Shown: positions 2,824 to 22,309 of the stretch, piece after piece
Layout: each line of letters starts with the position of its first letter
How positions within the stretch are numbered: position 1 is the first letter of the stretch
Sequence record: SRR20825019_2750
DNA: 41,008 nucleotides
Direction: 5' to 3' (one strand)
The notes under the pieces: model-generated
Told to the model about the DNA's origin: nothing
Seen by the model: only the letters and a program-made list of their open reading frames with translations
Database searches by the model: none
Program-made: the position numbers and the translations under genes

Positions 2824-3474
2824 CTACCCCTGCGCCAGGCGTTGGTATGCATGCTCCACCGTTATGATGTGCGAGCGCATGGACAATTCTGCACCAGAAC
2901 GGTCTCCGCACAATATGGCCGCGACGACCTTGCTATGCTCCTCGTGCGAGCGGCCAAGGCGGCCAAGTGTGTTGAACTGGGCGCGGCGAAAGGGCTGCAG
3001 CCGCTGGCGCGTGGTGCTCGCCAACTCCAGCAGATAGCTATTGTGGGCGCCGCGATAGATCATCGAGTGGAAGGCCTCATTGGCGTCAACATAGGCGCCG
3101 GAATCGCCATCGCGCACCATGGCGGCCATGGCCGAATGATGGGTGCTGAGGGCCTGACGTTCACCAACGCCCATGCTCACCGCTGAGAGCCCGGCGCACA
3201 AGGCCTCAAGATAGGCCATGACTTCGAACATGCCGGCCAAAGTCGCTTCATCAGGCTTGGCCACAACCGCGCTGGAATGGGGGCGCTGCTCGACAAGGCC
3301 GCTGGCCCGAAGCAGGCGCAAGGCCTCACGAATGGGTGTTCGGGACACAGCGAATTCGGCGGCCAGGCCCTGCTCGTCCAGCGGCGCGCCGGGCGCCAGT
3401 TCGCCATTGATGATGCGTTCCGCAATGGTGTGCCGGATGTGTTCGGCGGAGGTGCGGGGAGGACGCTGGAGCAC
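2824..3474 (-). CDS. GntR-family transcriptional regulator (FCD domain)
   Basis: wHTH GELAPGAPLDEQGLAAEFAVSRTPIREAL; FCD motifs NEAFH and EEH. Confidence 0.93.
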   Translation of the reverse strand: MLQRPPRTSAEHIRHTIAERIINGELAPGAPLDEQGLAAEFAVSRTPIREALRLLRASGLVEQRPHSSAVVAKPDEATLAGMFEVMAYLEALCAGLSAVSMGVGERQALSTHHSAMAAMVRDGDSGAYVDANEAFHSMIYRGAHNSYLLELASTTRQRLQPFRRAQFNTLGRLGRSHEEHSKVVAAILCGDRSGAELSMRSHIITVEHAYQRLAQG

Positions 3475-3492
3475 TCTTTGGGTCTCGCTGCT

Positions 3493-3870
3493 TCAGGGCC
3501 CGGGCATCATGCTGACATGGGCGGCACTTATTTTCCAACCGTGGTCGGTGCGTATCCAGGTTTGCTGCTGACGCCCGGTCTGACCGGGAAAGTCGTCTCG
3601 ATAGAACAAGGTGGAGGCCACGGCAACGTCAGCCCCATAGGTGGTGATCACGAGGCGATCCAGGGTCCGCGCAAACGGAGCCTGTGCGGCGCGAAAGGCA
3701 CGCAGTTCGTCGATGCCGTATTGCACCTCGTTCACGCCATAGCGCACGATGTCGGTGCGGTGCAGGAAATAGGTGTCGAGGGCCTCGGTGTCATTGGCCA
3801 AAAGCGCAGACTCATAGTCATGAAAGACCGCTTCTACCTCGGCGATTATGCTGGGGTCGTTGAGGATCAT
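3493..3870 (-). CDS. AtzH/HpxZ-like (DUF3225) protein, probable carboxybiuret decarboxylase (TrtB-type)
   Basis: Motifs YESALLAND, RYGVNEVQYG, GRQQQTW and WKISAAHVS. Translationally coupled within the triuret operon. Confidence 0.85.
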   Translation of the reverse strand: MILNDPSIIAEVEAVFHDYESALLANDTEALDTYFLHRTDIVRYGVNEVQYGIDELRAFRAAQAPFARTLDRLVITTYGADVAVASTLFYRDDFPGQTGRQQQTWIRTDHGWKISAAHVSMMPGP

Positions 3871-4643
3871 GCAGATTTCCGGCGGGACAGCATGGAATCG
3901 CGCAGACGCCTGAGAAACGGAATGGTGTCGAACTGATCGGCCCGCACCTTGGTCCAGTCCACGCCCATGGGTCGGACCATGGTATTGCCCGTGGCAATGA
4001 GTTCGGCCTCGGTAGCAATAAAATCGAGGGGGCTGTCATGGGCCTCAATGATGATGTGCCGATCCTCCACCAACTGGATTGAGTGGATGGTTGTAGCCAT
4101 GGGGGTCTGTTCCGTGATCAGTCCAAGTTCCCGGAAAATCGCGGTTTCAAGGTCGGCGAAGCCTGCGCCCTTGCCGGTGCGGCCACCCGCGCGGCTAACG
4201 GCGACCGAACCGACGACGCAGAAATCGAGCGGTTCGACATCCTCGAACTCCAGTCTTTCGCCATACTCCATGAAGCCCTGCGGCGTGGCCGCGAGTTCAA
4301 AGGACACATCTGCCCCGGTTAGGCGGGCCGGATCGAGCTTGAGATAGGGGAAATCCTTGGTGAGATAAGGAACCGGCGTGAATACGGTCTTCCCGTCATA
4401 GAGGGCACGGATGCGGATCGGGGTCTGCGCGTGGTCCGGATTGGTCTTGACGGTACCGGCTGATTTCCAGGCCTCGGTCTGGGCCAGGCGCCACGCGGCA
4501 GTGTCAGCACCGACAAAGTTCGGGATCATGCTCCATGCCGGACCAACATTGACCCCTTCGGCTTCCAGCTGATGCCAGATATCGTGGCGAATGACGTCCT
4601 TGGCCGGGTTGCGGCCGGCCCAACGGCCCTGTTCCTGCATCAT
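3867..4643 (-). CDS. 5-formyltetrahydrofolate cyclo-ligase paralog (MTHFSD/COG0212-like)
   Basis: Motifs [37 protein letters not shown] and [10 protein letters not shown]. Its start overlaps the trtA stop. Confidence 0.85.
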
Positions 4644-5320
4644 GCTTTTCCTTCTCCGACGGCAGATTGCAAATGGGTGAGTGGTGTGGCCCAGCCGACA
4701 ATGCCGCCCTGGGCGGTAATCATCTCAATGGTGGCGACCTTGAACTGGGGGAAATAGCTTTCCGTGGCATCTTCGATGAGCAGGCATTCATAGCCCCGGT
4801 CATTGGCTTCGCGCATGGACGTCTGAACACAAACTTCGGTTGTGACGCCGGCGAAGACGAGATGGGTGATGCCCATGTCGTGCAGCCGTTCGTGGATGCC
4901 GGTGGCGAAGAACATGCCCTTTCCGGGTTTGTCGATGACGATCTCGCCGGCAATGGGCGAGAGGGCATCCACGATCTGGTTGCCCGGCTCGCCGGCAATC
5001 AGGATACGGCCCATGGCCCCTTCATCGCCGATCCGAAGGCCCGGCTTGCCGCGATTGCGCTTGGCCGGCGGGCAATCGGAAAGGTCGGGTTGATGAGCTT
5101 CGCGCGTATGGATGATTGGCCAGCCCTCCGCCCGGAACAGGGCGATGAGGGCGGCGGTGGTCGGGATGATAGCGGCAAGGCGGTGGACGTCATTGCCCAG
5201 CGAGTCACCAAAGCCGCCTTGCTCGATGAAATCGCGCTGCATGTCGATGACGACCAGGGCGGTGCGGGCCGTGTCAAACCGGAAGGGGTAGGGGCGGGCA
5301 GGGACGCTCAGAAGGCTCAT
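4640..5320 (-). CDS. trtA: Triuret hydrolase (isochorismatase-like cysteine hydrolase)
   Basis: D-K-C triad (IDMQ, IDKPGKG, TTEVC). Carries the TrtA-type residues GGF..LGN, TTE, SY and QGGI, as opposed to the BiuH-type residues in the paralog. ATG 5320 overlaps the ATPase TGA. Confidence 0.85.
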
Positions 5321-6858
5321 CAATGTCCCGCCATATGCTGGCCGATGATGTTGCGGTCGGTGTCCTCGATTTTACTGACATAGGTAATCGTGCCGCCGCT
5401 CATCACCGCGACCCGATCGGCCAATTCGAGGATTTCGTCGAGATCTTCGGACACCAGCAGGACTGCCGCGCCGCGATTGCGCTGCTCCATGATCTGGCTG
5501 CGGATTTCTGACACTGACGCAAAGTCGAGCCCAAAACAGGGATTGGCGACGATCAACACATCGACATCGCTCGAAAGCTCACGGGCCAGCACGGCGCGCT
5601 GCACATTGCCGCCGGACAGTGTTTCGATGGGGGCGTCGGGCGAGGTGGTCTTGACCCTGTAGCGGGCGATCAGGTCTTCGGCCTTTACCCGCAACGGACC
5701 GGGGGACATCCACCAGCCGAATTTGGCCACTGGTGGCTTGTCGAAGGAGCGGAATGCGATGTTTTCGGCAACGCTCATGCGCGGCACCGTCGCGTTCTTG
5801 AGCGGCTCCTCAGGCAGGCCATAGACCTTGTAGCGGTCGAAGTCGCCGCGCCGCGGAGAGAAATTCTGGCCGCGGATGCGGATAGCCCCATCACTGAGCG
5901 GTCTTTGTCCTGCCAAGGCCTCTACCAAGGCCGACTGGCCATTGCCGGAGACGCCGGCAATGCCCACGATCTCGCCGGCATGCACCTTGAGGTTGACCGC
6001 CTCGATAGCGTTGCCACCCTCTGCATCATCGGCAAACAGGCCCGCCAGCTCGAGCATTTCGACTTTGTCGTTGTGCTGGCGGCGTTGCGCGCGCTCGCGG
6101 ATTTCAGTATCGCCGATCATCATCTGGCTCATTTCGGCGATTGAGGCCGTCTTTGCATCGCCCGAGCCGGTGAACTGGCCGCGCCGCAGCACAGTGAAGC
6201 CGTCACAAAAGGCCTTCACCTCGCGGAATTTGTGCGAGATCATCAGGACGGTGATTTCCTTGCGCGCCGCCATCTCGCCGAGCAGACCGAGCATTTCATC
6301 GGCCTCACCCGGCGTGAGGACCGATGTCGGCTCGTCCAGGATCATGAAGCGCTGATCGAGATAGAGCAGTTTGAGGATTTCCAGCTTCTGCTTTTCACCG
6401 GCCGAGAGGGCAGAGACCTGCGCATCGAGGGGCACTTTGAAGGGCATGGTATCCATGAAGGCGGCGAGCGCCTTTTTCTCCTTGCGCCAGTCGATCACCG
6501 AGGGTGCGTCGGCGCGGGAGATCACCAGGTTCTCCGCGGCGGTCAGGCAAGGGACCAGCGTAAAATGCTGATAGACCATGCCGATCCCATGAGAGCGCGC
6601 GTCACGTGGCGATCGGATGGACACTTCCTTGCCGTCGAGCAGCACCTGACCGCGATCTGCCGAATAATAGCCCATGATGGACTTCACTAATGTCGATTTG
6701 CCGGCGCCGTTCTCGCCCAAAAGGGCGTGGAATGAACCGGCTGGCACATCGATGCTGACATCTTCGAGTGCAATCAGGGGCCCGAAGATTTTGGTCATGC
6801 CGATGGCCTGCAAGGATGGGGCCCGGCCGGCGGCGATGAGCGGTTCCACCGCGTTCAT
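5320..6858 (-). CDS. ABC transporter ATP-binding protein (double NBD, nucleoside/BMP type)
   Basis: Walker [17 protein letters not shown]; second NBD GVSGNGQ and LSGGNVQ. Confidence 0.95.
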
Positions 6859-7580
6859 GGCAGCACCTCAATCAGCGCCGCCGCATGAGACACGGCGCCG
6901 AACACGCCGCCCTGCATCTTGATCATGTCGACAGCGGCGAGGTGGTTTTCGAGCTTGGTCGCGGCACAGCAATCCTCGAGCAACAGGCACTCATAGCCGC
7001 GGTCATTGGCGTCGCGCATGGTGGTGTGGACGCACACATCGGTGGTGACGCCGGCAAAGATGATGTTGCGGATATTCTTCATGCGCAGCACCAACTCGAA
7101 ATCGGTGGCGATGAAACTGCCCTTGCCTGGCTTGTCGATGATCTGCTCGCCGGGCAGGGGCCGGAGTTCGGGGATGATCTCCCAACCCGGCTCGCCGCGC
7201 ACCAGAATGCGGCCGCAGGGTCCCTGGTCTCCAATGCCGGCGCCGATGCGCTGGGAACGCCATCGCTTGTTGGCCGGGAGGTCGGAAAGGTCCGGTTTGT
7301 GACCCTCGCGGGTGTGGATGATGGTATAGCCCTTGGCACGCATCGCCTGGAGCACGCGCTGGATCGGCTCGATCGGCGCGCGGGTGAGCGAAATGTCGTA
7401 GCCCATGGTGTCGACATATCCGCCTGGTGCACAGAAATCGACCTGCATGTCGATGACCACGAGGGCCGTATTGTGCGGCCCCCAATTGCCATCGAAAGGC
7501 CAGGGATAGGGATCTGCAGAGGCGATGGTGGAGCCACCTGTGACCATGGCGGCGTCGATGCGTTCGTCGGCAAGGGTCAT
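6855..7580 (-). CDS. biuH: Biuret amidohydrolase
   Basis: ADPYPWP...[18 protein letters not shown]...[35 protein letters not shown]...TTDVC...QGGVFG is very close to Rhizobium BiuH as recalled. An alternative start is GTG 7592. Confidence 0.92.
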
Positions 7581-7588
7581 GGCAGGCC

Positions 7589-8509
7589 TCACTTGGTGAT
7601 GGAGAGTTCGCCCGGCACCTCGCGCGCCGCACCCTTGGAGCGGGCGGCGGCGATCATGATGAAGAGCGTGAGGATGTATGGGGCGGCATTGAAGAAATAG
7701 TAGCCCTGGGAAATACCGACCGACTGCAGGGATGGGCCGATGGCGCCGGCGGCACCGAAGAGCAGGGCGGCCCAGATGCAGCGGATGGGATCCCAGCGGG
7801 CAAAGATCACAAGGGCCACGGCCATCAGGCCCTGGCCAGAGCTGAGGCCCTGGTTCCAGGAGCCGGGGTAATATAGCGAGAGGAAAGCCCCGCCGATGCC
7901 GGCAAGGAAGCCGCCCGCCGCGGTGGCGAGAAAGCGAACCAGATCGACCGACACGCCCATGGCCTTGGCCGAGGCGGCGCTGTCGCCGGTCATGCGGACG
8001 ATTAGTCCCCAGCGTGTATTGGCGAAGGCCCAGCTCATCAATACCGCAAGCAGGATGCCGACAAAGAACAGCGGGTTGACCTGCAGGGCCTGTGCCAGCG
8101 CGGTATTGCCGGTCCAGTCACCCAGATGAACGGCGTCGAGCCGCGGCGCGGAGGGCTGGATATAGGGCTTGCCAAAAAAGAAGGCGAGGCCGGTGCCAAA
8201 GCTCATGATGGCGATGCCCACGGCGATGTCGTTGACCTTGGGCAGCTTGCAGATATAGCCGTGCAGCGCCCCCAGGATCAGGCCCGAACCACCGGCGGCG
8301 ATGACGCCGATCCAGGGATTGCCGGTGTGGAAGCTGATGGCATAGGCCACCATGGCCCCGAGCACGAGATTGCCCTCGAGCCCGAGATTGATGCGGCCGG
8401 ACTTCTCAGTCAGGCATTCGCCCAAGGCCACGAACATGAACGGGGTCGAGACGCGGATAGCGCCGCCCAGCATGGCGATGAGCACGGTGAGGAAGGCGCC
8501 ATCCATCAT
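7589..8509 (-). CDS. ABC transporter permease (BPD_transp_2, nucleoside type)
   Basis: Motifs [17 protein letters not shown] and [15 protein letters not shown]; hydrophobic. Confidence 0.93.
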
Positions 8510-9615
8510 GTGCGGTCTCCCTTGGCTTCAGGCTGGAAGACCTTGAGGCGGCCATAGAGCGTGTCGCTGGCCAGCAGGACCACGAAGATGATCCCTTGCA
8601 GCACCAGCACAGTGGCGTCGGGCATGTCCATGCGGCGTTGCACGAGGCCACCTGCCGCGGTGATGGCGCCGAAAAGGATGGCTACCGGCACGATCATCAG
8701 CGGATTATGCCGGGCAAGGAAGGCGACGAGAATGCCGGTAAAGCCATAGCCGGCCACCAGCGAGGCATTGGCCTGGCCGTGGATGACAGCCACTTCAAAA
8801 AAGCCCGCCAGTCCGGCGCAGGCCCCGGCAATGACGCAGCACGTGACCATGAGGAAGCCCACTGGCAGACCCTGCGCCTTTGCAGCCCGCACATTGCCGC
8901 CGGTCATGCGGGCGGCAAATCCGAAGGTGGTGCGCGACATCAGAATGTAGAGAATGACGGCCAGGACCACCCCTGCGGCAAAGCCCCAATGCACGTCCGT
9001 GCCGGGGATCGAGCCGATGCGATAGGCATCGCCGATCGGCATGGTGCTGGGCTTGTTGGCCGAGGCCGGGTCGCGCAGCGCGCCTTCGACGAAGAAGTTC
9101 ATGATGGCGATGGCGATATAGCTGAGCAGCAGCGAGGAAATGGTCTCGTTGACGCCGCGATAGTGCCGCAGCCAGCCAGCCATGCCGATCCACAGCCCCC
9201 CTGCCGCCGTGGCGGTCAGTGCCATGATCAGCCAGGCAATGGGCGTCGGTGCGCCCCCGGTTACCAGCGGAATGGCAATGGCCGCGGCGGCGAACCCTCC
9301 CAGTACCAGCGCGCCCTCGGCGCCGATCATGGTGAGGCCGATGCGGGCAGGAATGGCGAAGGCCAGTGCGGTCAGGATCAGCGGGGCGGAGCGCTGCAGT
9401 GATTGCTGAATCGAAAAGGCGGAGCCGAAGCCGCCGGTCCAAACCAGGCTGAAGAAGTCGATCGGCGACTTGCCGATGACCAGCAGGAACAGCGAGAAGA
9501 TCAGGAAAGAGCCCAACAGCGCCACGATGGGCACGAAGACGGATTCGGCGGTCTTGAGCGTGCGCACATTGGGGGTGCGGGTGGTTGGAATTGGTCCGGC
9601 TGTTTCTGCGCTCAT
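8506..9615 (-). CDS. ABC transporter permease (BPD_transp_2, nucleoside type)
   Basis: Motifs IGAEG, GVNETISSLLL and GYGFTGILVAFLA. ATG 9615 is preceded by GGAG; the longer ORF start runs into a repeat element. Confidence 0.92.
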   Translation of the reverse strand: MSAETAGPIPTTRTPNVRTLKTAESVFVPIVALLGSFLIFSLFLLVIGKSPIDFFSLVWTGGFGSAFSIQQSLQRSAPLILTALAFAIPARIGLTMIGAEGALVLGGFAAAAIAIPLVTGGAPTPIAWLIMALTATAAGGLWIGMAGWLRHYRGVNETISSLLLSYIAIAIMNFFVEGALRDPASANKPSTMPIGDAYRIGSIPGTDVHWGFAAGVVLAVILYILMSRTTFGFAARMTGGNVRAAKAQGLPVGFLMVTCCVIAGACAGLAGFFEVAVIHGQANASLVAGYGFTGILVAFLARHNPLMIVPVAILFGAITAAGGLVQRRMDMPDATVLVLQGIIFVVLLASDTLYGRLKVFQPEAKGDRT

Positions 9616-9631
9616 GGCTTGCTCCGCAAAG

Positions 9632-9742
9632 ACCCCTCCTAGCCTCCCCCCGTACGGGGGAGGGACCGATTTGTGCGTGAGGCGCCATCCCGACCCCTCC
9701 ACCGGCCGGTCCCCTTTTTGGGGGGGGAGGCCAGGTGGAGGT
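9632..9742. repeat. REP/MITE-like palindromic element typical of Hyphomicrobiales intergenic regions
   Basis: ACCCCTCCTAGCCTCCCCCC...GGGGGAGGGACCG----CGGTCCC...GGGGGGGGAGGCCAGGTGGAGGT: imperfect terminal inverted repeats with internal hairpins, between the SBP and permease genes. Confidence 0.7.
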
Positions 9743-9766
9743 GGGGCCGCTTGCGCCGGACTTCGA

Positions 9767-10870
9767 TTAGGTAATCGAACCCACTACGCCTTCGAGCAGG
9801 TAGTTCATGCCATCGAGTACGGGGTCGTAATTGTCCATTTCGCCCTCGATGACCACATTGCCGGCATTGTCCTTGAGCGGGCCGACATAGATGGGCTTCT
9901 GTGCCACCAGGTCGGCAATGGCGGCGTCCGCCGCGGCTACGGCTTCGGGCGTGGCGCCGGCGCCATAGACCGTGCTCTGCAGCATGTCGTTGTGGTAGCC
10001 ACCAGCGACGAAATTGGGCAGCGGCTCGCCGGCGGCAAGCAGGTCGGCATACATCGAATAGATGGTGCTCCACTTATACTCGGCGCCGGTGATGAAGCCG
10101 TTGGGCGCCAGTGGCGCCTGGCTGGCATTGTGCCCGCAGGTCTTGACGCCACGGCCCTCGGCCGTCTCGACCACCACCTTGGGGCCATCCACATGGCATC
10201 CGATGACGTCGCAGCCGGCATCGATCAGCGCATTGGTGGCCTCGGCCTCGCGCACGGGCATGGACCACTCGCCGGTGAAGATCACCTGTACGGTGGCATT
10301 GGGGTTGGTCTTCTTGGCGCCGAGCAGGAAGGAGTTGATGTTGCTCAGCACCGAAGGGATCGGTTTGGCCGCAACGAAGCCGAGCTTGCCGGTTGGCGAG
10401 GAGAGGCCGGCGGCGACGCCATTCACGTAATGGCCCTGGTTGAGGTAACAGAAATAGGAGCCGGCATTGGCCGGGTCAGCATCGCTCCACAGCGGCGCGG
10501 CGTGACGGAATTGAACATCGGGGTATTTCTTGGCCAGCTCGACCACGAAGGGGCTGTAATAGCCGAAGGAGGTGGCCAGTATCAGGTTGGCGCCGTCCAG
10601 GTTGATCATGGATTCCATGGACTGGCTGACGGCGTCGGTCTCGGGGACATTCTCTTCCTCGATGACGGTGACGCCAGGCACGGCCTTGAGGATTTCCATG
10701 GCGACTGAATGCGCCTGGTTCCAACCGAAATCGTCGCGCGGGCCGACATAGACGGCACCCAGCACGATGGGGGATTGCGCCCGGGCCAGACCCAGTGGCA
10801 GTGCGGCGGTAGCGATGCCCGCCGCACCGGCTTTGAGCAGTGAACGGCGGGACAGATTGAATTGCGTCAT
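9767..10870 (-). CDS. BMP-family ABC substrate-binding protein with Tat signal peptide
   Basis: MTQFNLSRRSLLK twin-arginine motif; YVGPRDDFGWNQAH and ATSFGY (BMP family); RBS GAGGGAG before ATG 10870. Confidence 0.92.
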   Translation of the reverse strand: MTQFNLSRRSLLKAGAAGIATAALPLGLARAQSPIVLGAVYVGPRDDFGWNQAHSVAMEILKAVPGVTVIEEENVPETDAVSQSMESMINLDGANLILATSFGYYSPFVVELAKKYPDVQFRHAAPLWSDADPANAGSYFCYLNQGHYVNGVAAGLSSPTGKLGFVAAKPIPSVLSNINSFLLGAKKTNPNATVQVIFTGEWSMPVREAEATNALIDAGCDVIGCHVDGPKVVVETAEGRGVKTCGHNASQAPLAPNGFITGAEYKWSTIYSMYADLLAAGEPLPNFVAGGYHNDMLQSTVYGAGATPEAVAAADAAIADLVAQKPIYVGPLKDNAGNVVIEGEMDNYDPVLDGMNYLLEGVVGSIT

Positions 10871-10921
10871 TGATTTGCTCCCTCGATCCGCGCCCGAACG
10901 GGGTACGGTTGCTATCGGCAA

Positions 10922-10937
10922 TGCAATCCCTGTGCCA
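10922..10937 (-). promoter_or_regulatory. Sigma-54 (-24/-12) promoter of the triuret/biuret operon
   Basis: The minus strand reads TGGCAC-AGGGA-TTGCA, a canonical TGGCAC-N5-TTGC, about 50 bp upstream of the SBP start. Confidence 0.85.
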
Positions 10938-11023
10938 CGCTGAAAAATTCGAATAAAATATCTGTTAATCAATGGGATATGTAAAAAACCGTAACCTGGT
11001 GTTGCCATGGCGGTTGGCCAGTA

Positions 11024-11083
11024 TTGCATACAACGTCGTCAGCAATGGCTAATAAATAGGCACAAACTTTCTGTTGCATACAA
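11024..11083. promoter_or_regulatory. Two GntR/FCD-type operators (TTGCATACAA at 11024-11033 and 11074-11083) flanking a possible NtrC-like site (11046-11062)
   Basis: Two identical near-palindromic 10-mers 50 bp apart in the divergent intergenic region. TGGCTAATAAATAGGCA between them loosely resembles an NtrC box. Confidence 0.65.
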
Positions 11084-11130
11084 TTATGTCGGGTGCCAGA
11101 CTTTGGCTCTGTGTCGTCGAAAGTGAACCC

Positions 11131-13309: not shown

Positions 13310-13343
13310 CTGCCAGGCGAAAGCACCCATGCGCGGAGAAATC

Positions 13344-13365
13344 AGCCCCTCACAGGGGCTTTTTT
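13344..13365 (+). terminator. Intrinsic terminator (attenuator) in the MFS 5' leader
   Basis: AGCCCCT-CAC-AGGGGCT followed by a T run, about 40 nt before the MFS start codon. Confidence 0.8.
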
Positions 13366-13402
13366 ATTGCCAAGTTTTCCACCCAAGCAATTGGCTTTGA
13401 TC

Positions 13403-14596: not shown

Positions 14597-14740
14597 CCAA
14601 AGGAGAACGCGCACGCCTGCTTTCAGCGATGGCGGAACGTTACCCCAATCTTTGCGATGGAGTTGGCAACAGCCACCCTCAACCTCGTCATGATCGTTCG
14701 CCCAAGGGACTTCGACCATTTTCAATGAGCAGACGAAGAG

Positions 14741-14766
14741 AGGGCCGGGGCTATGGCTCCGGCCCT
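14741..14766 (-). terminator. GC-rich hairpin downstream of the dioxygenase
   Basis: AGGGCCGGGGC-TATG-GCTCCGGCCCT, 15 nt past the stop codon; weak U-tract. Confidence 0.55.
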
Positions 14767-14781
14767 GTAGTGAACTCGCTC

Positions 14782-15780
14782 TTAAAGCCGGTTGGCAGCT
14801 ATTCGCTGCTGCAGGTAGTCATGGGCCGTGATCGGCTCATACTTGCCGCCGGGACCCTCTATGATCGCGTCCTTGTTGGCCTGGCAGAAGAAGGGCAGGG
14901 AATAGCGAGGGCCGAGATATTCGTGCTCGGCCGGCATCCGGACCCGGTGCAGCGTCGACAGAAGCTGGTCGTCGCTCCAACGCATCAGCATGTCGCCGAT
15001 ATTGCAGGTGACCACGCCCGCCTTGGGCTCCACATCGGTCCAGGCCAGTTCGCCGTCAGACTCCTTGCCGGGGCAGAGCTGCAATCCGCCCTGACCGACA
15101 CGCTGGTGCAGCAGGGTCAGGCAGTCGAAGTCGGTATGGGCCCCGGCACGCCAGCCCTTGAAGTCATCGGGCTTGGCATCAACCATGGGCAGATAGTGGA
15201 TGAGCCGCTGGGTGCTCTGATATTCGGGCGAGAGCGGATCGTGAGCGTCGGTGAAGAAGTCCGGCTCGAAACCGAGCTTCAGGGCAAAGCAGGACAGGAC
15301 CTGCATGCCCAGCGCCCAGTTTGCGCGCTCGAAAGCCAGCATTGTGGCCTTGAAGCCCGGCAATTCATTGCCGTTTGGCCAGAGGCCCGCCATGCGCGGC
15401 GCGGTAATCTGGTAGGATTCCTTATTGTCGGCGGTGCCGGTGGAGGGGCGCACCTGCGCCTTGTATTCCCACCCGGCATTTGTCCCCTTGCCCAGCGGAT
15501 ACTGCGCCTTGATCTCTTCAGACAGGTCGAAGAACTTGGCCGTCATGTCGAACGCGGCATCGATTTGGCTCTGCGGGATGCCGTGATTGATCAGCTGGAA
15601 GAAACCGATCCGGGTCGCCGCATCCCAGAGCTGGTCGGCAATCACGGCTTTACGATTTTCGAAATCGCTCATGTCGATCTGGGGGACGTCGCGATGCATG
15701 GTCGTGCCGACGCCGCCAATGCCCTTTTCCTTGTTGAGTTCGGCCAGACCGTAATCGGCTGCCGCTGCCTGTGCTGTCAT
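14782..15780 (-). CDS. 2-oxoglutarate/Fe(II)-dependent dioxygenase (isopenicillin N synthase family)
   Basis: GFFQLINHGI; HTD...LHRV...RYS (HxD/H iron triad and RxS); RBS GGAGA before ATG 15780. Confidence 0.93.
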   Translation of the reverse strand: MTAQAAAADYGLAELNKEKGIGGVGTTMHRDVPQIDMSDFENRKAVIADQLWDAATRIGFFQLINHGIPQSQIDAAFDMTAKFFDLSEEIKAQYPLGKGTNAGWEYKAQVRPSTGTADNKESYQITAPRMAGLWPNGNELPGFKATMLAFERANWALGMQVLSCFALKLGFEPDFFTDAHDPLSPEYQSTQRLIHYLPMVDAKPDDFKGWRAGAHTDFDCLTLLHQRVGQGGLQLCPGKESDGELAWTDVEPKAGVVTCNIGDMLMRWSDDQLLSTLHRVRMPAEHEYLGPRYSLPFFCQANKDAIIEGPGGKYEPITAHDYLQQRIAANRL

Positions 15781-15810
15781 GATTGTCTCCATGAGAAAGT
15801 GTGGGGTGCT

Positions 15811-15854
15811 GGAGCAATGACCGGACGCCGCTGGCGTCTGACTGCTTCTACTCC
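15811..15854 (-). ncRNA. NMT1-motif (xanthine-I) riboswitch aptamer
   Basis: The minus strand reads GGAGTAGAAGCAGTCAGACGCCAGCGGCGTCCGGTCATTGCTCC. This fits the recalled NMT1 consensus GAGUAGAAGC..UCAG-[stem]-CCGG...UUGCUC and lies about 30 nt upstream of a dioxygenase, a typical gene association. Confidence 0.85.
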
Positions 15855-15881
15855 GAAGGGGCCGTCTTTTTATGTGCTGTC

Positions 15882-15924
15882 CTTGTCCCGAAACCGGTGT
15901 TCCCTTTCGGGGGACAAGCCCTAG
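15882..15924. repeat. REP-like hairpin
   Basis: CTTGTCCCGAAA-CCGGTGTTCCC-TTTCGGGGGACAAG inverted repeat ending in CTAG. Confidence 0.65.
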
Positions 15925-16064
15925 TGCGAACCGGCGGCCCTGGCCGATCCGGCGTGCTTGTCCCGTGGCTCCTGGGATTGGCACAGGCGCAGGGCGCAGG
16001 TGGCGCAGCCACGACCACAGGGGGATTTTCCGGCTTCGGAAGCATTGTGAAGGTCCATCCGCAT
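15921..16064 (-). CDS. Small Cys-rich protein (47 aa, C-x3-C-x2-C-x4-C), not in the ORF track
   Basis: MRMDLHNASEAGKSPCGRGCATCALRLCQSQEPRDKHAGSARAAGSH*; RBS GAAAGGA 10 nt upstream. Confidence 0.5.
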   Translation of the reverse strand: MRMDLHNASEAGKSPCGRGCATCALRLCQSQEPRDKHAGSARAAGSH

Positions 16065-16170
16065 GGGATCTCGGTCCTTTCAGCGTAGGTTCACGGCGAT
16101 GTGCCGAACCGACGCGAGAAGAATGGACCCGTTGAGTGCTGCCCATCCAGCGTCAAATTCAGCGTCTGGT

Positions 16171-16212
16171 GTTGCCTTGCGCGCAACGGGTGCGTGTTGC
16201 GTAAAATGCAAC
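16171..16212. promoter_or_regulatory. Tandem LysR-type boxes GTTGC-N7-GCAAC
   Basis: GTTGCCTTGCGCGCAAC (16171-16187) and GTTGCGTAAAATGCAAC (16196-16212); each contains T-N11-A. Confidence 0.7.
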
Positions 16213-16287
16213 GCCTGAGGCGAATATTGGCGCTTGTTGCGCCTGATCCAGGGGCTAGGCTTTACCCGTCAAACCCGGAGGCCCCCA

Positions 16288-17073
16288 ATGCCGGACGTTT
16301 CACCCGTTGTTCGTTTCGCTGGCGTCAGCCAGATCTTTTCCGACCCGTCCGGCGCCAGCGTCACCGCGCTTTCGGACCTCCATATTGATATCCGCAAGAA
16401 CGAGTTCCTGGCCGTCCTCGGACCTTCGGGCTGTGGCAAGTCCACCCTGCTGCGCCAGATAGCGGGCCTCCTGATCCCGACCAGCGGCACGGTCTCGATC
16501 TATGGGCGAGAGGTGAGCGAGCCGCGCGACGAGATCGGCATGGTCTTCCAGAAGCCGACCCTCTTGCCTTGGTACAGCGTGCGCGACAACGTCACCTTTC
16601 CCATGCGCCACAAATATGGGCGCGTCACCGACAAGGACCGCGTGCGGGCCGACGAACTGCTGGCCATGATGGGCCTGGGTGAATTTGCCACGCGCCTGCC
16701 CGACACGCTATCGGGCGGCATGCAGCAACGCGTCGCCCTGGCCCGGGCGCTGCTGCTCGATCCCGATATCCTGCTCATGGACGAGCCGTTTTCGGCGCTC
16801 GATGCCCTAACGCGGGACGAGATGAGTTTCGAGCTGCTGCGCATCTGGCAGGAGCGACCCAAGACGGTGATCTTCATCACCCATTCAATCCCTGAAGCCG
16901 TGCTCCTGGCCGACCGGATCGTGGTGATGTCGTCGCGCCCCGGCCGGGTCCGCGAGGTGATCGAGGTTGACCTGCCGCGTCCGCGCACCATGCAGAGTTT
17001 TTCGGCGCCGCGCTTTTCGGTGCTGGCCAACCATATCCGCGAACAGCTTTTCACCCGTCCCCTGATGGCATGA
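16288..17073 (+). CDS. ABC transporter ATP-binding protein (NitT/TauT type)
   Basis: Motifs [17 protein letters not shown] and MDEPFSALD; RBS GGAGG. Confidence 0.95.
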   Translation: MPDVSPVVRFAGVSQIFSDPSGASVTALSDLHIDIRKNEFLAVLGPSGCGKSTLLRQIAGLLIPTSGTVSIYGREVSEPRDEIGMVFQKPTLLPWYSVRDNVTFPMRHKYGRVTDKDRVRADELLAMMGLGEFATRLPDTLSGGMQQRVALARALLLDPDILLMDEPFSALDALTRDEMSFELLRIWQERPKTVIFITHSIPEAVLLADRIVVMSSRPGRVREVIEVDLPRPRTMQSFSAPRFSVLANHIREQLFTRPLMA

Positions 17074-17076
17074 CCC

Positions 17077-17883
17077 ATGGCCCTCGCAATGTCTGATCTG
17101 CCCAGCCGTTCCGTCCTGCAGCGCCTGCTGCGCCTAGTCGACGCCGGTCTGCCCGTGCTTGCCTTTGTCGCACTTATCGCGGTGTGGGAGGGCGGCACCA
17201 GGCTTTTCCAGGTGCCCACATTCCTGTTGCCGGCCCCCAGCATGATCGTTTCCGCGCTTTTCGGGCTCGATGCAGGGCTCTGGGCCGGGCACATCTGGGC
17301 GACCGTCCGGGTGGCGCTGCTAGGATATGCCCTGGCGATTGCCGTCTCGGTGCCGCTGGCGATTGGCCTTGCCACGTCGCGCACGCTGTCGCGGACGCTC
17401 TATCCCTTCCTTATCGTGATCCAGTCGATGCCCATCGTGGCGGTGGCGCCCATCATCGTGGTCACCATGGGGTCGGGAGACCTGCCGCGCGTGATGATCA
17501 CTTTCCTCATCACCTTCTTCCCCATCGTGGTCTCGACCACGACTGGCTTGATGGCTACGCCGCCCGAACTGATCGAGCTGTCCCGCTCCCTCAGGGCCGG
17601 GCGCAGCCGTGAAATCTGGCAGATCCGCCTGCCCTATGCGATGCCGCACCTGTTCTCGGCGCTGCGCATCTGCACCACGCTGGCCCTGATCGGCGCGGTG
17701 GTGGCCGAGTTCGTGGCGGCGGATAAGGGGCTGGGCTATTTCATCACCTTCTCGACCTCCAACTTCCGCATCCCGGCGGCCTTTTCGGGCCTCGTCGTGC
17801 TGGTGGTGCTGAGCCTTGGCTTTTTCAAGCTCGTCGACCTTGTCCAGCACCGGCTTGCTTCATGGTCACTGCCCAATCGCTGA
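17077..17883 (+). CDS. ABC transporter permease (NitT/TauT type)
   Basis: Motifs LLPAPS, P.VAVAP and IGAVVAEF....GLG. Confidence 0.93.
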   Translation: MALAMSDLPSRSVLQRLLRLVDAGLPVLAFVALIAVWEGGTRLFQVPTFLLPAPSMIVSALFGLDAGLWAGHIWATVRVALLGYALAIAVSVPLAIGLATSRTLSRTLYPFLIVIQSMPIVAVAPIIVVTMGSGDLPRVMITFLITFFPIVVSTTTGLMATPPELIELSRSLRAGRSREIWQIRLPYAMPHLFSALRICTTLALIGAVVAEFVAADKGLGYFITFSTSNFRIPAAFSGLVVLVVLSLGFFKLVDLVQHRLASWSLPNR

Positions 17884-17942
17884 GCGCTTGAGTTTGGCAC
17901 GGCTGCGCGGCAAGGTGCATGGCGAATAGGACCTTGCCCACC

Positions 17943-18842
17943 ATGCTGCATTCCCGCCTGCTGCGCTATCTGGATGAGGTGGTGCGCTCGGGGTCCATCC
18001 GGCGCGCCGCCGAAAAGCTCAATGTCGCCTCCAGTTCGATCAACCGGCAGATCATCGAGCTCGAGGCAGAGCTGGGCACGCCGCTGTTCGAGCGCCTGCC
18101 ACGCCGCCTGCGGCTGACGGCGGCGGGCGAAATCCTCATCAACCACATCCGGCAGACGCTGCGGGACCATGATCGCGCGCGCTTCCGCATTGCCGAACTG
18201 GGCGGGGTCGGGCGCGGTACGGTGCGGATCGCTACCATGAATGGCCTCGCCAGCGGCCTGCTGCCGCATGTCTGCCGTGACTTCGTGCGCAGTTTTCCCG
18301 GCGTCCGCTTCGAAGTGCAGAGCCTCCTCGCGCCGCAGATCGTGGGCGCAGTTGCCGATGGAGAGGTCAGCTTCGGCCTTGGCTACAATTTGGCGCCGTC
18401 ACCCAATCTACGCGTCGTCGAGACCTTTGCCGCCCAACTCGGCGTGGTTTGCGCCCCAAGCCATGCTCTGGCCGCCCGGACAGACCTCCGCTTATCCGAT
18501 CTGGCCGGCGAAAGGCTGGTTCATGCCGATTCCATGCTGACCATCCGCACCATAGTGGATGAAGCCTGCCGCAAGGTGGGCGTCGATCTGCCGGCGCCAT
18601 TCGAGACCAATTCGGTGCAGATGATGAAGCATCTGGTGCAGGAGGGGCGGGCGGTGACCTTCCTCTCGCCCCCCGATGTCGACAGTGAGGTGGAAGGCGG
18701 AAGCCTGGTCTATATCCCCCTCAGGGATCGGCTCACGCCCAACCCGCTTCTCCTTGTCGAGCGGCCCGCGGGCAGCGAAAGCCCGTCTGCAGCCCTCTTC
18801 ATGGACCGACTTCAGCTCAAGCTGCGCCAGATCATTCCCTGA
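17943..18842 (+). CDS. LysR-family transcriptional regulator
   Basis: LRYLDEVVRSGSIRRAAEKLNVASSSINRQIIELEAELGTPLFER HTH. Confidence 0.95.
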   Translation: MLHSRLLRYLDEVVRSGSIRRAAEKLNVASSSINRQIIELEAELGTPLFERLPRRLRLTAAGEILINHIRQTLRDHDRARFRIAELGGVGRGTVRIATMNGLASGLLPHVCRDFVRSFPGVRFEVQSLLAPQIVGAVADGEVSFGLGYNLAPSPNLRVVETFAAQLGVVCAPSHALAARTDLRLSDLAGERLVHADSMLTIRTIVDEACRKVGVDLPAPFETNSVQMMKHLVQEGRAVTFLSPPDVDSEVEGGSLVYIPLRDRLTPNPLLLVERPAGSESPSAALFMDRLQLKLRQIIP

Positions 18843-19749
18843 CCGCGCGCGCCGGCAGGCTGGTCATGGCCCGGATGACATCTTCGGCAAACAGGGCGGC
18901 CGAGAAGTCCGGGACAGCATTTTCGCGCTGCACCAGGGACAGGGTCTGTGCCGTCAGGCTCTTGTCGAGAAGCGGTAGGTAGACCAGTCGTCCGGCCCGA
19001 ACATCGTCCAGCACGTCCGGCTCGGACAGGAAAGTCAGCGACTCCCCGTCATCCAGGAACCCTTTCATCAGGTCGGTCGAATTGGTGTCCACGGTTGAAT
19101 GCAGCGTGGTGCGAATGCGCAGCGCGGCATCGTCCAGCACCTTGCGCAGGGAGAGGCTCGCATCGGCCAGGATGATGGGATATTGCGCGCATTCGGTCAG
19201 CCGCACGCTGGCTTTTCGCGCCAGCGGATGGCTGGGATGCATCACGGCCCCCAATCGCGCCTCGACGGCGTACAGAACCTTGATCCGCGCGTCACTGGGC
19301 AGGTTGTAGCCCAGCCCGATGTCGGCCTCGCCTGACTTGACGGCGGCCATCAGGGCGGGACCCGTCAGGGCATTGATCGAGAGGCGCACCGCAGGGAAAC
19401 GTTCAGAAAAGTCGAGCGCCAGACGGGGGACGAGACCGCTGATCGGCCCGTTCTGCGTGGCCAGCCGAACCAGCCCGCCGCCAGGGTGCTGCATCTGCCC
19501 GATGCGCGCCATGAGACGGTCATGTTCCTTGAGCGTCTGGCGGATGTGGGTCATCAACATTTCGCCGGCCGCCGTGAGCCGCATCTTGCCCGGCATGCGT
19601 TCGAAAACGGGCGTGCCCAGTTCCGCCTCGAGATCGGTGACCTGCCGGCTGATCGAGGACGACGCCACGCCCAGCCGGGCGGCCGCCTTGCGGATCGAGC
19701 CGGCGCGAACCACCTCGTCGAGATATCGCAATATGCGGGCATGCAGCAT
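18832..19749 (-). CDS. LysR-family transcriptional regulator (paralog of 17943-18842)
   Basis: MLHARILRYLDEVVRAGSIRKAAARLGVASSSISRQ; RBS CAGGAG before ATG 19749. Confidence 0.95.
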   Translation of the reverse strand: MLHARILRYLDEVVRAGSIRKAAARLGVASSSISRQVTDLEAELGTPVFERMPGKMRLTAAGEMLMTHIRQTLKEHDRLMARIGQMQHPGGGLVRLATQNGPISGLVPRLALDFSERFPAVRLSINALTGPALMAAVKSGEADIGLGYNLPSDARIKVLYAVEARLGAVMHPSHPLARKASVRLTECAQYPIILADASLSLRKVLDDAALRIRTTLHSTVDTNSTDLMKGFLDDGESLTFLSEPDVLDDVRAGRLVYLPLLDKSLTAQTLSLVQRENAVPDFSAALFAEDVIRAMTSLPARAVRE

Positions 19750-19901
19750 GGCGCACTCCTGTTCGGCGTTCTCTTTTTCGCAGCACACATGGCGGAATTC
19801 AACGCTTTTCGGATGCAGTCGAGCATGTCCTGATGCCCCCCGTAGCAGCACACCGCGTCCACCGCGAACGGCTCGTAACCCATCCCGCCGAAAGGGTCAT
19901 C

Positions 19902-20891
19902 ATGCGCATTTCTCTTGTCTCGACCGCTCTCCTCGCCAGCCTCCTGGCGACCTCGTCCACACTGGCTGCCGACATCGTCCGGTTCCAGTTTTCCTGGCTT
20001 CCGGGCGGCGACCGCGCGGCCTACTACCTTGCCCAGCAGCAGGGACTGTTTGCCGCCGAAGACCTCGACGTCACCCTGATTGCCGGGCGCGGCTCGTCCG
20101 ACGCCATCACCAAGATAGCGACCGGTGTTGCCGATCTGGGCGAAGGCGGGCTCGATGCGCTGCTGTCAGCCAAGGTCGAGGGCGACATCCCCGTCATCGC
20201 CGTGATGCCGGTCTATACCCGCGCGCCCGATGGCCTGCTGACCACTGCCGACAGCGGCATCACGGGCATTGAGGATGTGACCGGCAAGACCGTGGGCACC
20301 TCGCCCTTCACCTCCTCGAATGGCCCCTGGCCCTTCCTGCTGTCGGCCAATGGCGTTGATCCTGCCCAGGTCAACACCACCCAGGCCGATGCCAATGCCC
20401 TGCCGGCCATGCTGGCCACTGGCCAGGTCGATGCCATCATCCAGTATGTCACCAACGCCCCGGGCACGGAGGCCATTCTGGCGGAAGCGGGCAAGGAGCA
20501 GGTGATCATTCCCTGGGCCGACTATGGCCTGGATGGCTATTCGGCCTCGATCTTTGCCAATGAGCAGTTCCTGGCGAACAACCGCGATGTGGTCATTCGC
20601 TTCGCGCGTGCCCTGCGCAAGGCGGAGGAGATGCTCCAGGCCGATCCGGCGGCCGGCGCCGCGGCCGTGAAGGCGGCGATCCCTGAGATTGATCTCGATG
20701 TGACCCTCGCCATGGCCAATGCAACCCTGCCGCTGGTGTTCAATGAAAATACCGATGCCGCCGGCCTCGGTATCTTCGATCCTGCCCGCGTGACCACGAC
20801 CTGGGAATGGGTCGCCAAGCAGAAGGACGTTGGCCTCGACACGCTCGATCCGATGGCTGCGGTCGATTTCAACATCGCCAAGGGCGAGTAG
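19902..20891 (+). CDS. NMT1/THI5-like ABC substrate-binding protein
   Basis: Sec signal MRISLVSTALLASLLATSSTLAA; motifs FSW, YYLAQQQGLF..E.LDV, GRGS and GKTVG. Confidence 0.88.
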   Translation: MRISLVSTALLASLLATSSTLAADIVRFQFSWLPGGDRAAYYLAQQQGLFAAEDLDVTLIAGRGSSDAITKIATGVADLGEGGLDALLSAKVEGDIPVIAVMPVYTRAPDGLLTTADSGITGIEDVTGKTVGTSPFTSSNGPWPFLLSANGVDPAQVNTTQADANALPAMLATGQVDAIIQYVTNAPGTEAILAEAGKEQVIIPWADYGLDGYSASIFANEQFLANNRDVVIRFARALRKAEEMLQADPAAGAAAVKAAIPEIDLDVTLAMANATLPLVFNENTDAAGLGIFDPARVTTTWEWVAKQKDVGLDTLDPMAAVDFNIAKGE

Positions 20892-20947
20892 GCTGCTGAC
20901 CGGGGCGGCCTTGCGCTGCCCCATTTCTATCCCTCGGAGGCAAGTGC

Positions 20948-22309
20948 ATGGGCACGATTATTCAAGGGGCCGAGGGCCTGTTTACCGGACGTCGCGACGC
21001 GCCCCGCGCCAAGGGCGCGATCCGTTATGAAGACGGTGTCATCACCCATGTCGGGGAGGTGGTCGCCGCGCAAGGTGACAGGATCATCGATGCCAGCGGA
21101 TGCGTCATCTATCCGGGCCTCGTCAACACGCATCACCATCTGGCCCAAAGCATGCTCAAGGCCATCCCTGCCGCCATCAACCTGCCGGTGACCGAATGGC
21201 TGGTGGAGGTCCCATATCGCTATTGGCGCAAGCTGGACGAGGACGCGTTTCGCCTGGCGGCCACGATCGGCATGGTGGAACTGCTGCTCTCGGGCACGAC
21301 CACCATTGCCGACCACCATTACATCTATTCACCCGATCTCGGCTACGACCCGTCCGAAATCCTCTTCGAGATTGCGGCAAGTCTCGGCGTCCGGTTTGTG
21401 CTCTGCCGGGGCAGCGCGACACGGCCAAGCCGGCTCTCGGCACAGGGTGCCGTCGGTGTGCCCACCGAAACCGTTGCCCAGACACTGGACACGATCGCCG
21501 CTCTGGCGCAGCGCTTCCACCAGTCTGGCGCCAACAGCATGCGCAAGGTTGTGCTGGCCCCGACCAATCTCATCTGGTCGGTTGAACCCCAGGACATAAA
21601 GGATTTGGCGCGGGAAGGTCGGGCGCTGGGATTGCGGCTCCATAGCCACCTGTCCGAAGCACCGGGAGACGTGGCCCATTGTGTCCAGAAACACGGCATG
21701 CGGCCGGTTCACTATGCTGCAAAGCACGACTTTGTCGGCGACGATGTCTGGTTCGCCCATCTCGTGCATGTCGACGAGGCAGAACTCAATCTCCTGGCAG
21801 AGACCGGCACCGGCATGGCGCATTGCCCGCAATCGAACGCGCGTCTGGGCACGGGCATTGCCCCCGCGCCCACACTCTCGGCCCTGGGCGGCCGCGTCAC
21901 CATTGGCGTCGATGGCGCGGCCTCCAACGAGGCGGCCGACATGATCTCGGAAATGCACAGCGCCTGGCACCTGCATCGCACGGGCGGCAGGCCCGATGCG
22001 GTGAGCGTCGAGGACGTGGTGACATGGTCCAGCGTCAATGGCGCGCGCATGCTGGGGTTTGATGACACAGGCACGCTGGAACCCGGCATGGCGGCCGATA
22101 TCGCGGTCTTCGACCTGTCCCAGCCCCGCTATGCGGGTCTCCACGATCCGCTGGTCGGCCCGGTGGTCAGCGCCGGATCGGCGCAGATGCATACGCTGGT
22201 CGTCGCCGGCATTGAAGTCGTCATTGACGGCGCCATCCCCGGCCTCGACCTCGTGACCCTGGCCCGCGACGCGCGCGCGGGGGTCGCCAAGTTGGTCGGC
22301 GACGGCTGA
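20948..22309 (+). CDS. Amidohydrolase-superfamily deaminase, isoxanthopterin/8-oxoguanine deaminase-like
   Basis: Motifs NTHHHL.QS, DHHY, HSHLSE, AHLVH, HCPQSN and GVDGAASN; APTN at the position of the recalled PTT/PCS specificity motif. Confidence 0.82.
   Translation: MGTIIQGAEGLFTGRRDAPRAKGAIRYEDGVITHVGEVVAAQGDRIIDASGCVIYPGLVNTHHHLAQSMLKAIPAAINLPVTEWLVEVPYRYWRKLDEDAFRLAATIGMVELLLSGTTTIADHHYIYSPDLGYDPSEILFEIAASLGVRFVLCRGSATRPSRLSAQGAVGVPTETVAQTLDTIAALAQRFHQSGANSMRKVVLAPTNLIWSVEPQDIKDLAREGRALGLRLHSHLSEAPGDVAHCVQKHGMRPVHYAAKHDFVGDDVWFAHLVHVDEAELNLLAETGTGMAHCPQSNARLGTGIAPAPTLSALGGRVTIGVDGAASNEAADMISEMHSAWHLHRTGGRPDAVSVEDVVTWSSVNGARMLGFDDTGTLEPGMAADIAVFDLSQPRYAGLHDPLVGPVVSAGSAQMHTLVVAGIEVVIDGAIPGLDLVTLARDARAGVAKLVGDG

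Follow-up and report, generated by a model that had tools for sequence, protein, structure and literature searches.

The window analysed here, a 41,008-nt stretch of DNA from sequence record SRR20825019_2750, carries two gene modules side by side: a triuret/biuret degradation cluster (module T, 2824-12939) and, 1.8 kb from it, a 2-oxoglutarate (2OG)/Fe(II) dioxygenase gene with a xanthine/urate riboswitch in its leader, close to genes for an NMT1-type importer and an amidohydrolase (module X, 14782-22309). The best explanation is that two known nitrogen-scavenging modules adjoin each other in an accessory region of a replicon of the Rhizobiales type. That they act as complementary branches on one purine/urate-derived nitrogen pool is in our view about an even bet, and we rank this reading first, a coincidental neighbourhood second, and a sequential enzymatic route from purine to ammonia third. 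The neighbourhood is not random, because relatives with one module tend to possess the other as well, often less than 20 kb away. An initial annotation of this DNA had proposed that the two modules could form a single pathway. Of that link, the association beyond the window and the sharing of paralogs in relatives hold up, whereas most triuret operons and most dioxygenase loci stand apart.

A complete triuret/biuret cluster between direct repeats

The gene map of the window is based on a list of open reading frames and on NCBIfam, Pfam and Rfam matches, and gene and RNA identities, repeats, and co-occurrence and proximity statistics are given as observed. Module T was compared with 92 triuret loci, which are the BiuH-positive genomes of an order sample of 401 evenly drawn genomes, each covered from BiuH outwards by 10 kb on either side and searched by tblastn with defined queries. 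In the window, nine genes on the minus strand occupy 11029 to 2824 with 4-nt overlaps at seven junctions, as read from their coordinates, and atzF diverges from them. The initial annotation had called a triuret/biuret module here, and every element that it named is found at its place.

The biuret amidohydrolase BiuH (6855-7592, minus strand) scores 409.1 bits on NF050097 (cut-off 370) and 405.6 bits against BiuH of R. leguminosarum, 6AZO. Divergent from the operon, the allophanate hydrolase AtzF (11074-12939, plus strand) passes both NF006043 (814.4 bits, cut-off 487) and TIGR02713 (783.2 bits, cut-off 511.05). A second isochorismatase-like cysteine hydrolase (4640-5323, minus strand) is of the TrtA type, by its sequence a predicted triuret hydrolase. 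It matches TrtA 6XIX with 331.2 bits, far above the 200.8 and 193.2 bits that it reaches against BiuH chains (the latter against 6AZO), and it stays under the cut-off of the BiuH model (241.4 vs 370 bits). In an ungapped alignment with 6XIX it keeps the D of VVIDMQ, the K of IDKPGKG, the C of TTEVCVQ and the Q of TAQGG, a residue matching that assumes an inferred 3-residue numbering offset. The article text of PMC7948467 identifies 6XIX as TrtA and gives the roles of the catalytic Asp-Lys-Cys and of the specificity Gln.

The remaining genes fit the same cluster type. The BMP-type importer consists of a double ABC ATPase (5320-6858, minus strand), whose orthologs in other triuret clusters are 54-81% identical, of two ABC permeases recognised by NCBIfam (7589-8509 and 8506-9702, both minus strand), and of a BMP/PnrA-like substrate-binding protein with a twin-arginine translocation (TAT) signal (9767-11029, minus strand; PF02608 111.4 bits, PF10518 23.3 bits). 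The last gene of the operon (2824-3474, minus strand) encodes a GntR-family regulator, which matches GntR-family models only and none of them above cut-off; its orthologs, with 50-63% identity, sit in triuret clusters of relatives.

Next to it lies the gene for an AtzH-like/HpxZ protein of the NTF2 fold (3493-3870, minus strand; NF033625 149.1 bits with cut-off 135, PF11533 153.1 bits), which aligns with the AtzH structure 6BJT at E=5.7e-27. We take it that this protein (3493-3870) may be a carboxybiuret decarboxylase of the TrtB type. No NCBIfam model named TrtB matched in module T, where the candidates for that role are the AtzH-like protein and a divergent member of the 5-formyltetrahydrofolate cyclo-ligase family (3867-4643, minus strand; PF01812 68.3 bits). 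The latter reaches just 22.1 bits on the MTHFS equivalog model (cut-off 84.9), and a search by sequence for solved relatives returned none. Its gene occurs in 29 of the 92 triuret loci.

Direct repeats at 2661-2722 and 13009-13071 (both plus strand), 88-89% identical to each other and reaching about 85 nt each in the alignment, bracket the module exactly from GntR through AtzF, just as had been claimed for its boundaries. Their 24-nt core has exactly 2 copies in the window, against 0 expected by chance. An empty site was sought in plasmids with the flanks of module T, and there the dioxygenase, DUF4037 and integrase genes were matched separately only.

A riboswitch-controlled dioxygenase and a predicted purine/pterin import module

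The monocistronic dioxygenase gene of module X (14782-15780, minus strand) encodes a protein of DIOX_N plus 2OG-FeII_Oxy architecture (PF14226 71.6 bits, PF03171 69.5 bits). The 2OG/Fe(II) oxygenases are defined by an HxD...H iron triad and an RxS motif that binds 2OG, and the GAHTDFD, STLHRV and PRYSLPFF motifs of the window enzyme line up with those of 5C3P and 3OOX. By sequence, its closest characterised relative is the thymine dioxygenase 5C3P, a nucleobase hydroxylase (E=8.3e-28).

Upstream of this gene lies an NMT1-motif aptamer (15807-15858, minus strand), which scores 49.2 bits on RF03054 (gathering score 36) and covers model positions 1-56 of 56. It ends 26 nt before the ATG of the dioxygenase; that ATG is preceded by the Shine-Dalgarno sequence GGAG, and an extra in-frame ATG lies 12 nt upstream of it. 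A xanthine riboswitch had been proposed for the module as such. It is present, but it precedes the dioxygenase alone and is the sole copy, as no second RF03054 aptamer was found in 12900-21000 even at E<=1. NMT1-motif RNA is described in the text of PMC7373994 as a xanthine/urate riboswitch through which xanthine and urate repress expression, and the genes of the class are assigned there to steps before xanthine/urate. Such repression fits enzymes that act before xanthine and urate, not after them. In the minimum-free-energy fold of the leader (15765-15880, minus strand) the 3' half of the aptamer (GUCAUUGCUCC) pairs with the Shine-Dalgarno/AUG region (z=-1.03). Fifteen orthologous leaders, when folded, gave no clear ON/OFF direction, the start-codon rule being unreliable. 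Forty short leaders, of 56 found, share a common hairpin plus GGAG architecture and showed no clear ON or OFF pattern.

Relatives of this module were collected as the 80 best loci encoding dioxygenase orthologs (71-85% identity), with 10 kb on each side. An aptamer sequence pattern, which recovers 5/5 of the Rfam matches, is found in 57/80 of these loci; genes for the NMT1 protein, ATPase and permease are present in 29/80 and the amidohydrolase gene in 23/80. In the window, the importer genes code for an ABC ATPase (16234-17073, plus strand) and a permease (17077-17883, plus strand), whose counterparts in locus L060 (Zavarzinia) show 75% and 74% identity, and for an NMT1/THI5-like substrate-binding protein (19833-20891, plus strand; PF09084 136.9 bits), which is 65% identical to that of L060 and 43% to that of genome G001. 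Between them stands a convergent pair of LysR regulators (17919-18842, plus strand, and 18832-19851, minus strand), with orthologs of 69% and 54% identity in L060. The whole block of ATPase, permease, LysR, LysR and NMT1 protein has the same order there, at 54-75% identity. The two LysR genes are paralogs that overlap by 11 nt, and their 5' parts form a 235-nt inverted repeat (I1), 74% complementary; the pair is also seen in L060.

A purine/pterin deaminase had been proposed for the module, and a PRK12393 amidohydrolase, isoxanthopterin-deaminase-like, is indeed encoded at its end (20948-22309, plus strand; NF009059 610.5 bits, cut-off 543). It does not pass as an 8-oxoguanine deaminase: on the equivalog model NF006055 it reaches 391.7 bits, under the cut-off of 532, and among solved chains it is nearest to 2PAJ (413.8 bits), with 3HPA further off (283.4 bits). 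We presume 2PAJ to be an isoxanthopterin deaminase and 3HPA an 8-oxoguanine deaminase, the PDB titles of both being generic.

A model of complementary branches

In the reading that we rank first, the BMP-type importer of module T would take up the substrate, and TrtA would hydrolyse triuret to carboxybiuret, which would lose CO2 either spontaneously or with the help of the AtzH-like protein. BiuH would then turn biuret into allophanate, and AtzF would turn allophanate into ammonia and CO2, with the GntR protein as the likely regulator. In module X, the NMT1-type importer and the isoxanthopterin-deaminase-like amidohydrolase would be under LysR control, and translation of the dioxygenase would be gated by the xanthine/urate riboswitch. 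This module most likely takes up an amino-oxo purine or pteridine, which is then deaminated and hydroxylated in the direction of xanthine/urate. Module X would funnel purine and pteridine bases to the urate node, and module T would recover nitrogen from the urea-oligomer products of urate oxidation. Triuret itself could form non-enzymatically, or by an oxygenase yet to be demonstrated. All substrates named here, like the physiological link between the modules, are what we infer from the genes. As built, the modules are kept apart, with two importers and with three regulators plus one riboswitch.

Co-occurrence and proximity in other genomes

Checked in other genomes, the modules show a family-level link and proximity in five genomes, while the order-wide association is not significant. 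The family sample comprised 301 genomes evenly drawn from the GTDB family of G001 and Ciceribacter, with BiuH scored in 300. It holds the dioxygenase in 14/301 genomes, BiuH in 59/300 and both in 11 (odds ratio 18, p=1.7e-6), so that BiuH is present in 11/14 dioxygenase genomes vs 48/286 genomes without the dioxygenase. Urea carboxylase (16/300), taken as a control, occurs in 1/14 dioxygenase genomes (p=0.54); 12/16 urea-carboxylase genomes have it together with BiuH. The tie between dioxygenase and BiuH is therefore not a general trait of nitrogen-scavenging genomes, because this control shows none with the dioxygenase.

The distance between the modules is 12.6-12.7 kb in G001, G625 and G714, and also in G093 from the order sample. 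In G692 it is 19.3 kb, in another layout, where unrelated genes fill 8 kb between the modules. The other co-occurring genomes of the family have the modules 54 kb apart (G486), more than 500 kb apart (three genomes) or on different contigs (three genomes). Thus 4/11 co-occurring family genomes keep them within 20 kb, in two layouts, neither of which is that of the window. The window has a third layout, and the arrangement of its module X is shared with L060. The triuret cluster nearest to that of the window is the one of G692 (BiuH 87%, BMP protein 83% and cyclo-ligase-like protein 78% identical). Between the modules of G692 (L182:5086-8166) we noted a phosphoribosyltransferase gene and a pair coding for a PfkB kinase and an Indigoidine_A-family protein, of the type seen in pseudouridine catabolism.

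BiuH scores over its cut-off in 45 of the 80 genomes of the dioxygenase loci, and 35/80 are without it. No gene for TrtA, BiuH, the AtzH-like or the cyclo-ligase-like protein was found within 10 kb of the dioxygenase in any of the 80 loci. Two loci are exceptions to a wider separation: L031 (Zhengella mangrovi), with the binding protein of a cluster at its edge, and L029, a short contig. When the contig of L031 was extended, a complete triuret cluster appeared 12.7 kb from the dioxygenase.

Several points count against complementary branches. The order-wide figures are among them: in the order sample, with dioxygenase orthologs accepted at E<=1e-90, BiuH is present in 92 genomes, the dioxygenase in 22 and both in 8 of 401 (BiuH in 8/22 vs 84/379; odds ratio 2.0, p=0.125), 14/22 dioxygenase genomes have no BiuH, and G001 and G093 are the only genomes with both modules on one contig, at a distance of about 13 kb. 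Genomes of the order and family samples are not phylogenetically independent, and G001, G093, G625 and G714 represent one layout. No triuret cluster gene lies within 10 kb in 78/80 dioxygenase loci, and the aptamer pattern is absent from the 90 other BiuH-centred loci. If triuret formed spontaneously outside the cell, no gene neighbourhood would be required. The presence of an additional dioxygenase (DIOX2, described below) and of an 8-oxoguanine-deaminase equivalent in triuret operons of relatives fits a sequential pathway better than parallel branches. Finally, and weakly, the leader fold modelled for the window would make the switch ON with ligand, opposite to the published OFF; ON switching, if real, would favour the sequential reading.

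Some of the same data suit a different account, in which insertion or recombination brought the triuret cassette next to a purine module unrelated to it, within an accessory island with many catabolic genes, and in which the association in relatives reflects shared ancestry of the island and shared ecology. The exact bracketing of module T by direct repeats speaks for it. So does the 3' end of a tyrosine recombinase/integrase gene at the start of the window (1-306, plus strand; 72-77% DNA identity to plasmid integrases), which is consistent with an accessory or mobile context, and so does the remainder of the window outside both modules, which is a mosaic of catabolic genes unrelated to each other. 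In the core-gene tree, one subclade (support 89) unites the triuret clusters of the window, G001, G093, L124 and L174, and part of the proximity may accordingly be inherited rather than re-created. The p value of 0.125 across the order also agrees with chance, and in Rhizobium beringeri the dioxygenase is matched on CP140798.1 and the BMP gene of the cluster on CP140799.1, separate plasmid records that probably come from one strain, as their adjacent accessions suggest. Triuret clusters are moreover found near other nitrogen modules, beside guanidine riboswitches and atzF in Allorhizobium pseudoryzae and beside urea carboxylase in R. etli. What coincidence explains poorly is the family-level odds ratio of 18 together with the negative control, the three layouts within 20 kb (that of the window included), with no orthology between the transporter genes of the window and their counterparts in G001 and G692 (NMT1 protein 43%), and the fact that paralogs of the same two enzyme families are common to both modules. 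On balance we hold a mere coincidence to be possible but rather unlikely.

Searches among plasmids returned no close relative of the window, the top match covering 19% of the query at 78% identity. Among triuret clusters on plasmids the nearest is that of A. pseudoryzae (62-86% amino-acid identity); no gene of module X lies within 20 kb of it, and none lies near the cluster on R. etli p42e either. As a separate observation, these two clusters sit near guanidine-I/II riboswitches or a urea carboxylase-atzF module (L089:29474-29580 and 32356-32406; L180:21462-26816).

The stretch between the modules of the window is short. Just past the right-hand repeat lies a small RNA (sRNA) of the Atu_C8 type (13255-13375, plus strand; RF02502 81.9 bits, gathering score 50), whose 3' end forms a terminator-like hairpin, followed by a gene for a Bcr/CflA-family MFS transporter (13367-14596, plus strand; TIGR00710 210.6 bits, cut-off 200.9). 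The first start codon listed for the MFS gene falls within the sRNA, and the true start is therefore probably further downstream. No ortholog of this transporter was found in any of the 80 dioxygenase loci or in any of the 92 triuret loci of other genomes. These two elements lie between AtzF and the dioxygenase, which agrees with the modules having been placed one gene apart.

Oxygenase and deaminase genes in triuret operons of relatives

The hydrolytic triuret pathway requires neither an oxygenase nor a purine-type aminohydrolase, and triuret operons of relatives have repeatedly incorporated both. DIOX2, a paralogous 2OG dioxygenase, is encoded directly upstream of the BMP gene and on the operon strand in 20/92 triuret loci (L099:4032-5078, plus strand; L086:382-1347, minus strand; 18 further loci), where it either abuts atzF co-directionally or diverges from gntR. 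With the G001 copy it shares 52-76% identity in 18 loci and 72% in G093; it is only 32-37% identical to the window enzyme, and also occurs in G692, G625 and G714 (69-88% identity). In triuret operons it has no xanthine-riboswitch control. An amidohydrolase gene precedes it in G001, G093, G625, G714 and L124, and the copy of G001, at the head of the operon (L086:1357-2652, minus strand), passes the 8-oxoguanine deaminase equivalog model (626.9 bits, cut-off 532). In L174 an amidohydrolase of the 8-oxoguanine-deaminase type stands directly before the BMP gene.

Two further enzymes are frequent in these operons: a formamidase between permease and BiuH (L099:8600-9640, plus strand; NF009803 569.6 bits vs 406) in 48/92 loci, and an AtzE-family amidase after TrtA (L099:12768-14177, plus strand; 669.3 bits vs 461) in 36/92. 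The incorporation of oxygenase and aminohydrolase genes time and again argues for a tie between purine- or pterin-like heterocycles and at least one clade of these operons, a tie that the BMP/PnrA-type binding protein and the co-occurrence at family level also suggest. For the window this tie is looser. DIOX2, the 8-oxoguanine-deaminase paralog, formamidase, AtzE and remnants of them were all sought there and none was found, the best AtzE match being AtzF itself (31% identity); importers and regulators are separate, and module T is bracketed by repeats.

These operons invite a sequential pathway, which we judge unlikely as a whole. An imported amino-oxo purine such as 8-oxoguanine would be deaminated to urate or an analogue, and a 2OG dioxygenase would break the ring into urea oligomers (triuret, carboxybiuret, oxalyl- or formyl-ureides), which TrtA, BiuH, the AtzH-like protein and AtzF would mineralise. 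For the window, this oxidation would fall to the riboswitch-controlled dioxygenase. The position of DIOX2 upstream of the BMP gene and the amidohydrolase ahead of it speak for such a pathway, and the chemistry suggests that oxidative cleavage of the urate C4=C5 bond would give an oxalyl-bridged triuret chain. The binding protein of the importer is of the purine-nucleoside-type BMP/PnrA family, and the modules co-occur and are close to each other at family level. A paralogous pair is also found inside xanthine-riboswitch loci, with a deaminase of the 8-oxoguanine type in 6/80 and a dioxygenase of the DIOX3 type (60-80% identity) in 10/80. DIOX2 and the cyclo-ligase-like gene are associated (16/20 DIOX2 loci vs 13/72 others, p=5e-7), and DIOX2 is limited to one of two major core-gene clades, the same that holds all cyclo-ligase-like genes.

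The distribution of the genes argues otherwise. The window has none of the extra enzymes, 72/92 triuret loci have no DIOX2 within 10 kb, and one whole clade of 43 triuret clusters is devoid of it. Thirteen clusters with a cyclo-ligase-like gene are without DIOX2 nearby, and their genomes have no dioxygenase ortholog; an independent-pairs test of DIOX2 against the cyclo-ligase-like gene was not significant. Conversely, the deaminase/DIOX3 pair or a DIOX2 ortholog occurs in genomes without BiuH (G062, G066, G068, G009). A DIOX2 ortholog (72% identity) was seen in a xanthine-riboswitch locus (L008:4009-4971) of a genome where a search for BiuH found none; DIOX2 is therefore not restricted to triuret operons. 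The enzyme class itself is a further objection, as 2OG oxygenases usually hydroxylate and do not cleave rings. The reported repression by xanthine and urate (text of PMC7373994) also runs counter to an enzyme acting after them. Lastly, hydroxyisourate hydrolase and OHCU decarboxylase are present in 5/5 relatives tested that have neighbouring modules, and hence a uricase-independent route, as the initial annotation had framed it, is not required.

The most novel proposal, which we regard as improbable, concerns one clade of triuret operons. These may form the final part of a hitherto undescribed enzymatic route for the opening of oxidised purines through an 8-oxoguanine-type deaminase and a 2OG dioxygenase, with TrtA, BiuH, AtzE/AtzH, formamidase and AtzF mineralising the resulting ureides; in the window, the dioxygenase would be switched by the level of its own substrate through the xanthine/urate riboswitch. 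If true, it would give triuret its first enzymatic origin.

The adjacency makes the biological origin of triuret testable without showing that one module feeds the other. Together with the relatives, the window names concrete enzymes and strains for testing the formation of ureides from purines, and it opens a test of the real cargo of the BMP importer.

Comparison with known systems

Both modules are already known, as is the idea that urate gives rise to triuret: the text of PMC7948467 has triuret arising from urate oxidation, "most likely nonenzymatically", and the TrtA-BiuH-AtzF route with its BMP-type transporter and gntR is described in the texts of PMC7948467 and PMC12625717. The association of the riboswitch module with a triuret cluster was not found in print, nor were triuret operons that include a 2OG oxygenase and an 8-oxoguanine-deaminase equivalent. 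A literature search returned nothing that ties a dioxygenase or an 8-oxoguanine deaminase to biuret/triuret genes, though supplementary neighbourhood figures may hold more, and in the article texts of PMC7948467 and PMC12625717, supplements being outside this scope, the word "dioxygenase" has 0 occurrences. A paper on pterin and lumazine in Cupriavidus (PMC12391406) was considered as a description of module X and set aside, as no dioxygenase, 2-oxoglutarate, NMT1 or riboswitch occurs in its text.

The triuret cluster of Herbaspirillum sp. BH-1 and R. leguminosarum 3841 with TrtA, TrtB, BiuH and AtzF, as given in the texts of PMC7948467 and PMC12625717, is the closest counterpart of module T. 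In both, hydrolases of the TrtA and BiuH types flank the ABC ATPase, and the BMP-type importer, GntR, AtzF and the catalytic residues of TrtA with its Gln are alike. The window adds a cyclo-ligase-like gene, a term with 0 mentions in the article texts of these two papers. The cluster of the window is without the formamidase and AtzE genes of many related clusters, is bracketed by direct repeats and lies 1.8 kb from a riboswitch-controlled dioxygenase. It has the AtzH-like NTF2 protein and AtzF in common with the AtzDGEHF operon of Pseudomonas sp. ADP (PMC6219798), but it is without AtzE and would deaminate biuret by BiuH; AtzD was not seen and was not sought.

The dioxygenase shares its DIOX_N plus 2OG-FeII_Oxy architecture with thymine dioxygenase (thymine-7-hydroxylase, 5C3P), which has a nucleobase as substrate, and with the uncharacterised 3OOX. 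It differs from them in matching at only about 100 bits and in being under a xanthine/urate riboswitch. The 8-oxoguanine deaminase cut-off likewise separates the amidohydrolase of the window, which fails it, from the paralog in the triuret operon of G001, which passes it.

Module X as a whole resembles the described NMT1-motif gene set. Typical downstream genes, according to the texts of PMC7373994 and PMC5737381, are those for pcbC-like dioxygenases, NMT1 proteins, TauA-type ABC systems and PRK12393 amidohydrolases, the last of which PMC5737381 calls "probably related to isoxanthopterin deaminases". The window has its aptamer in the leader of a pcbC-like dioxygenase gene and the same gene classes around it, but unlike its relatives it has one aptamer only, with two LysR genes where they have a second aptamer before the importer. 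It is remarked in the text of PMC7373994 that no genes for the degradation of oxidised purines accompany this riboswitch class. Against that remark, a triuret cluster lies near the riboswitch module in the window and in G001, G093, G625, G714 and G692.

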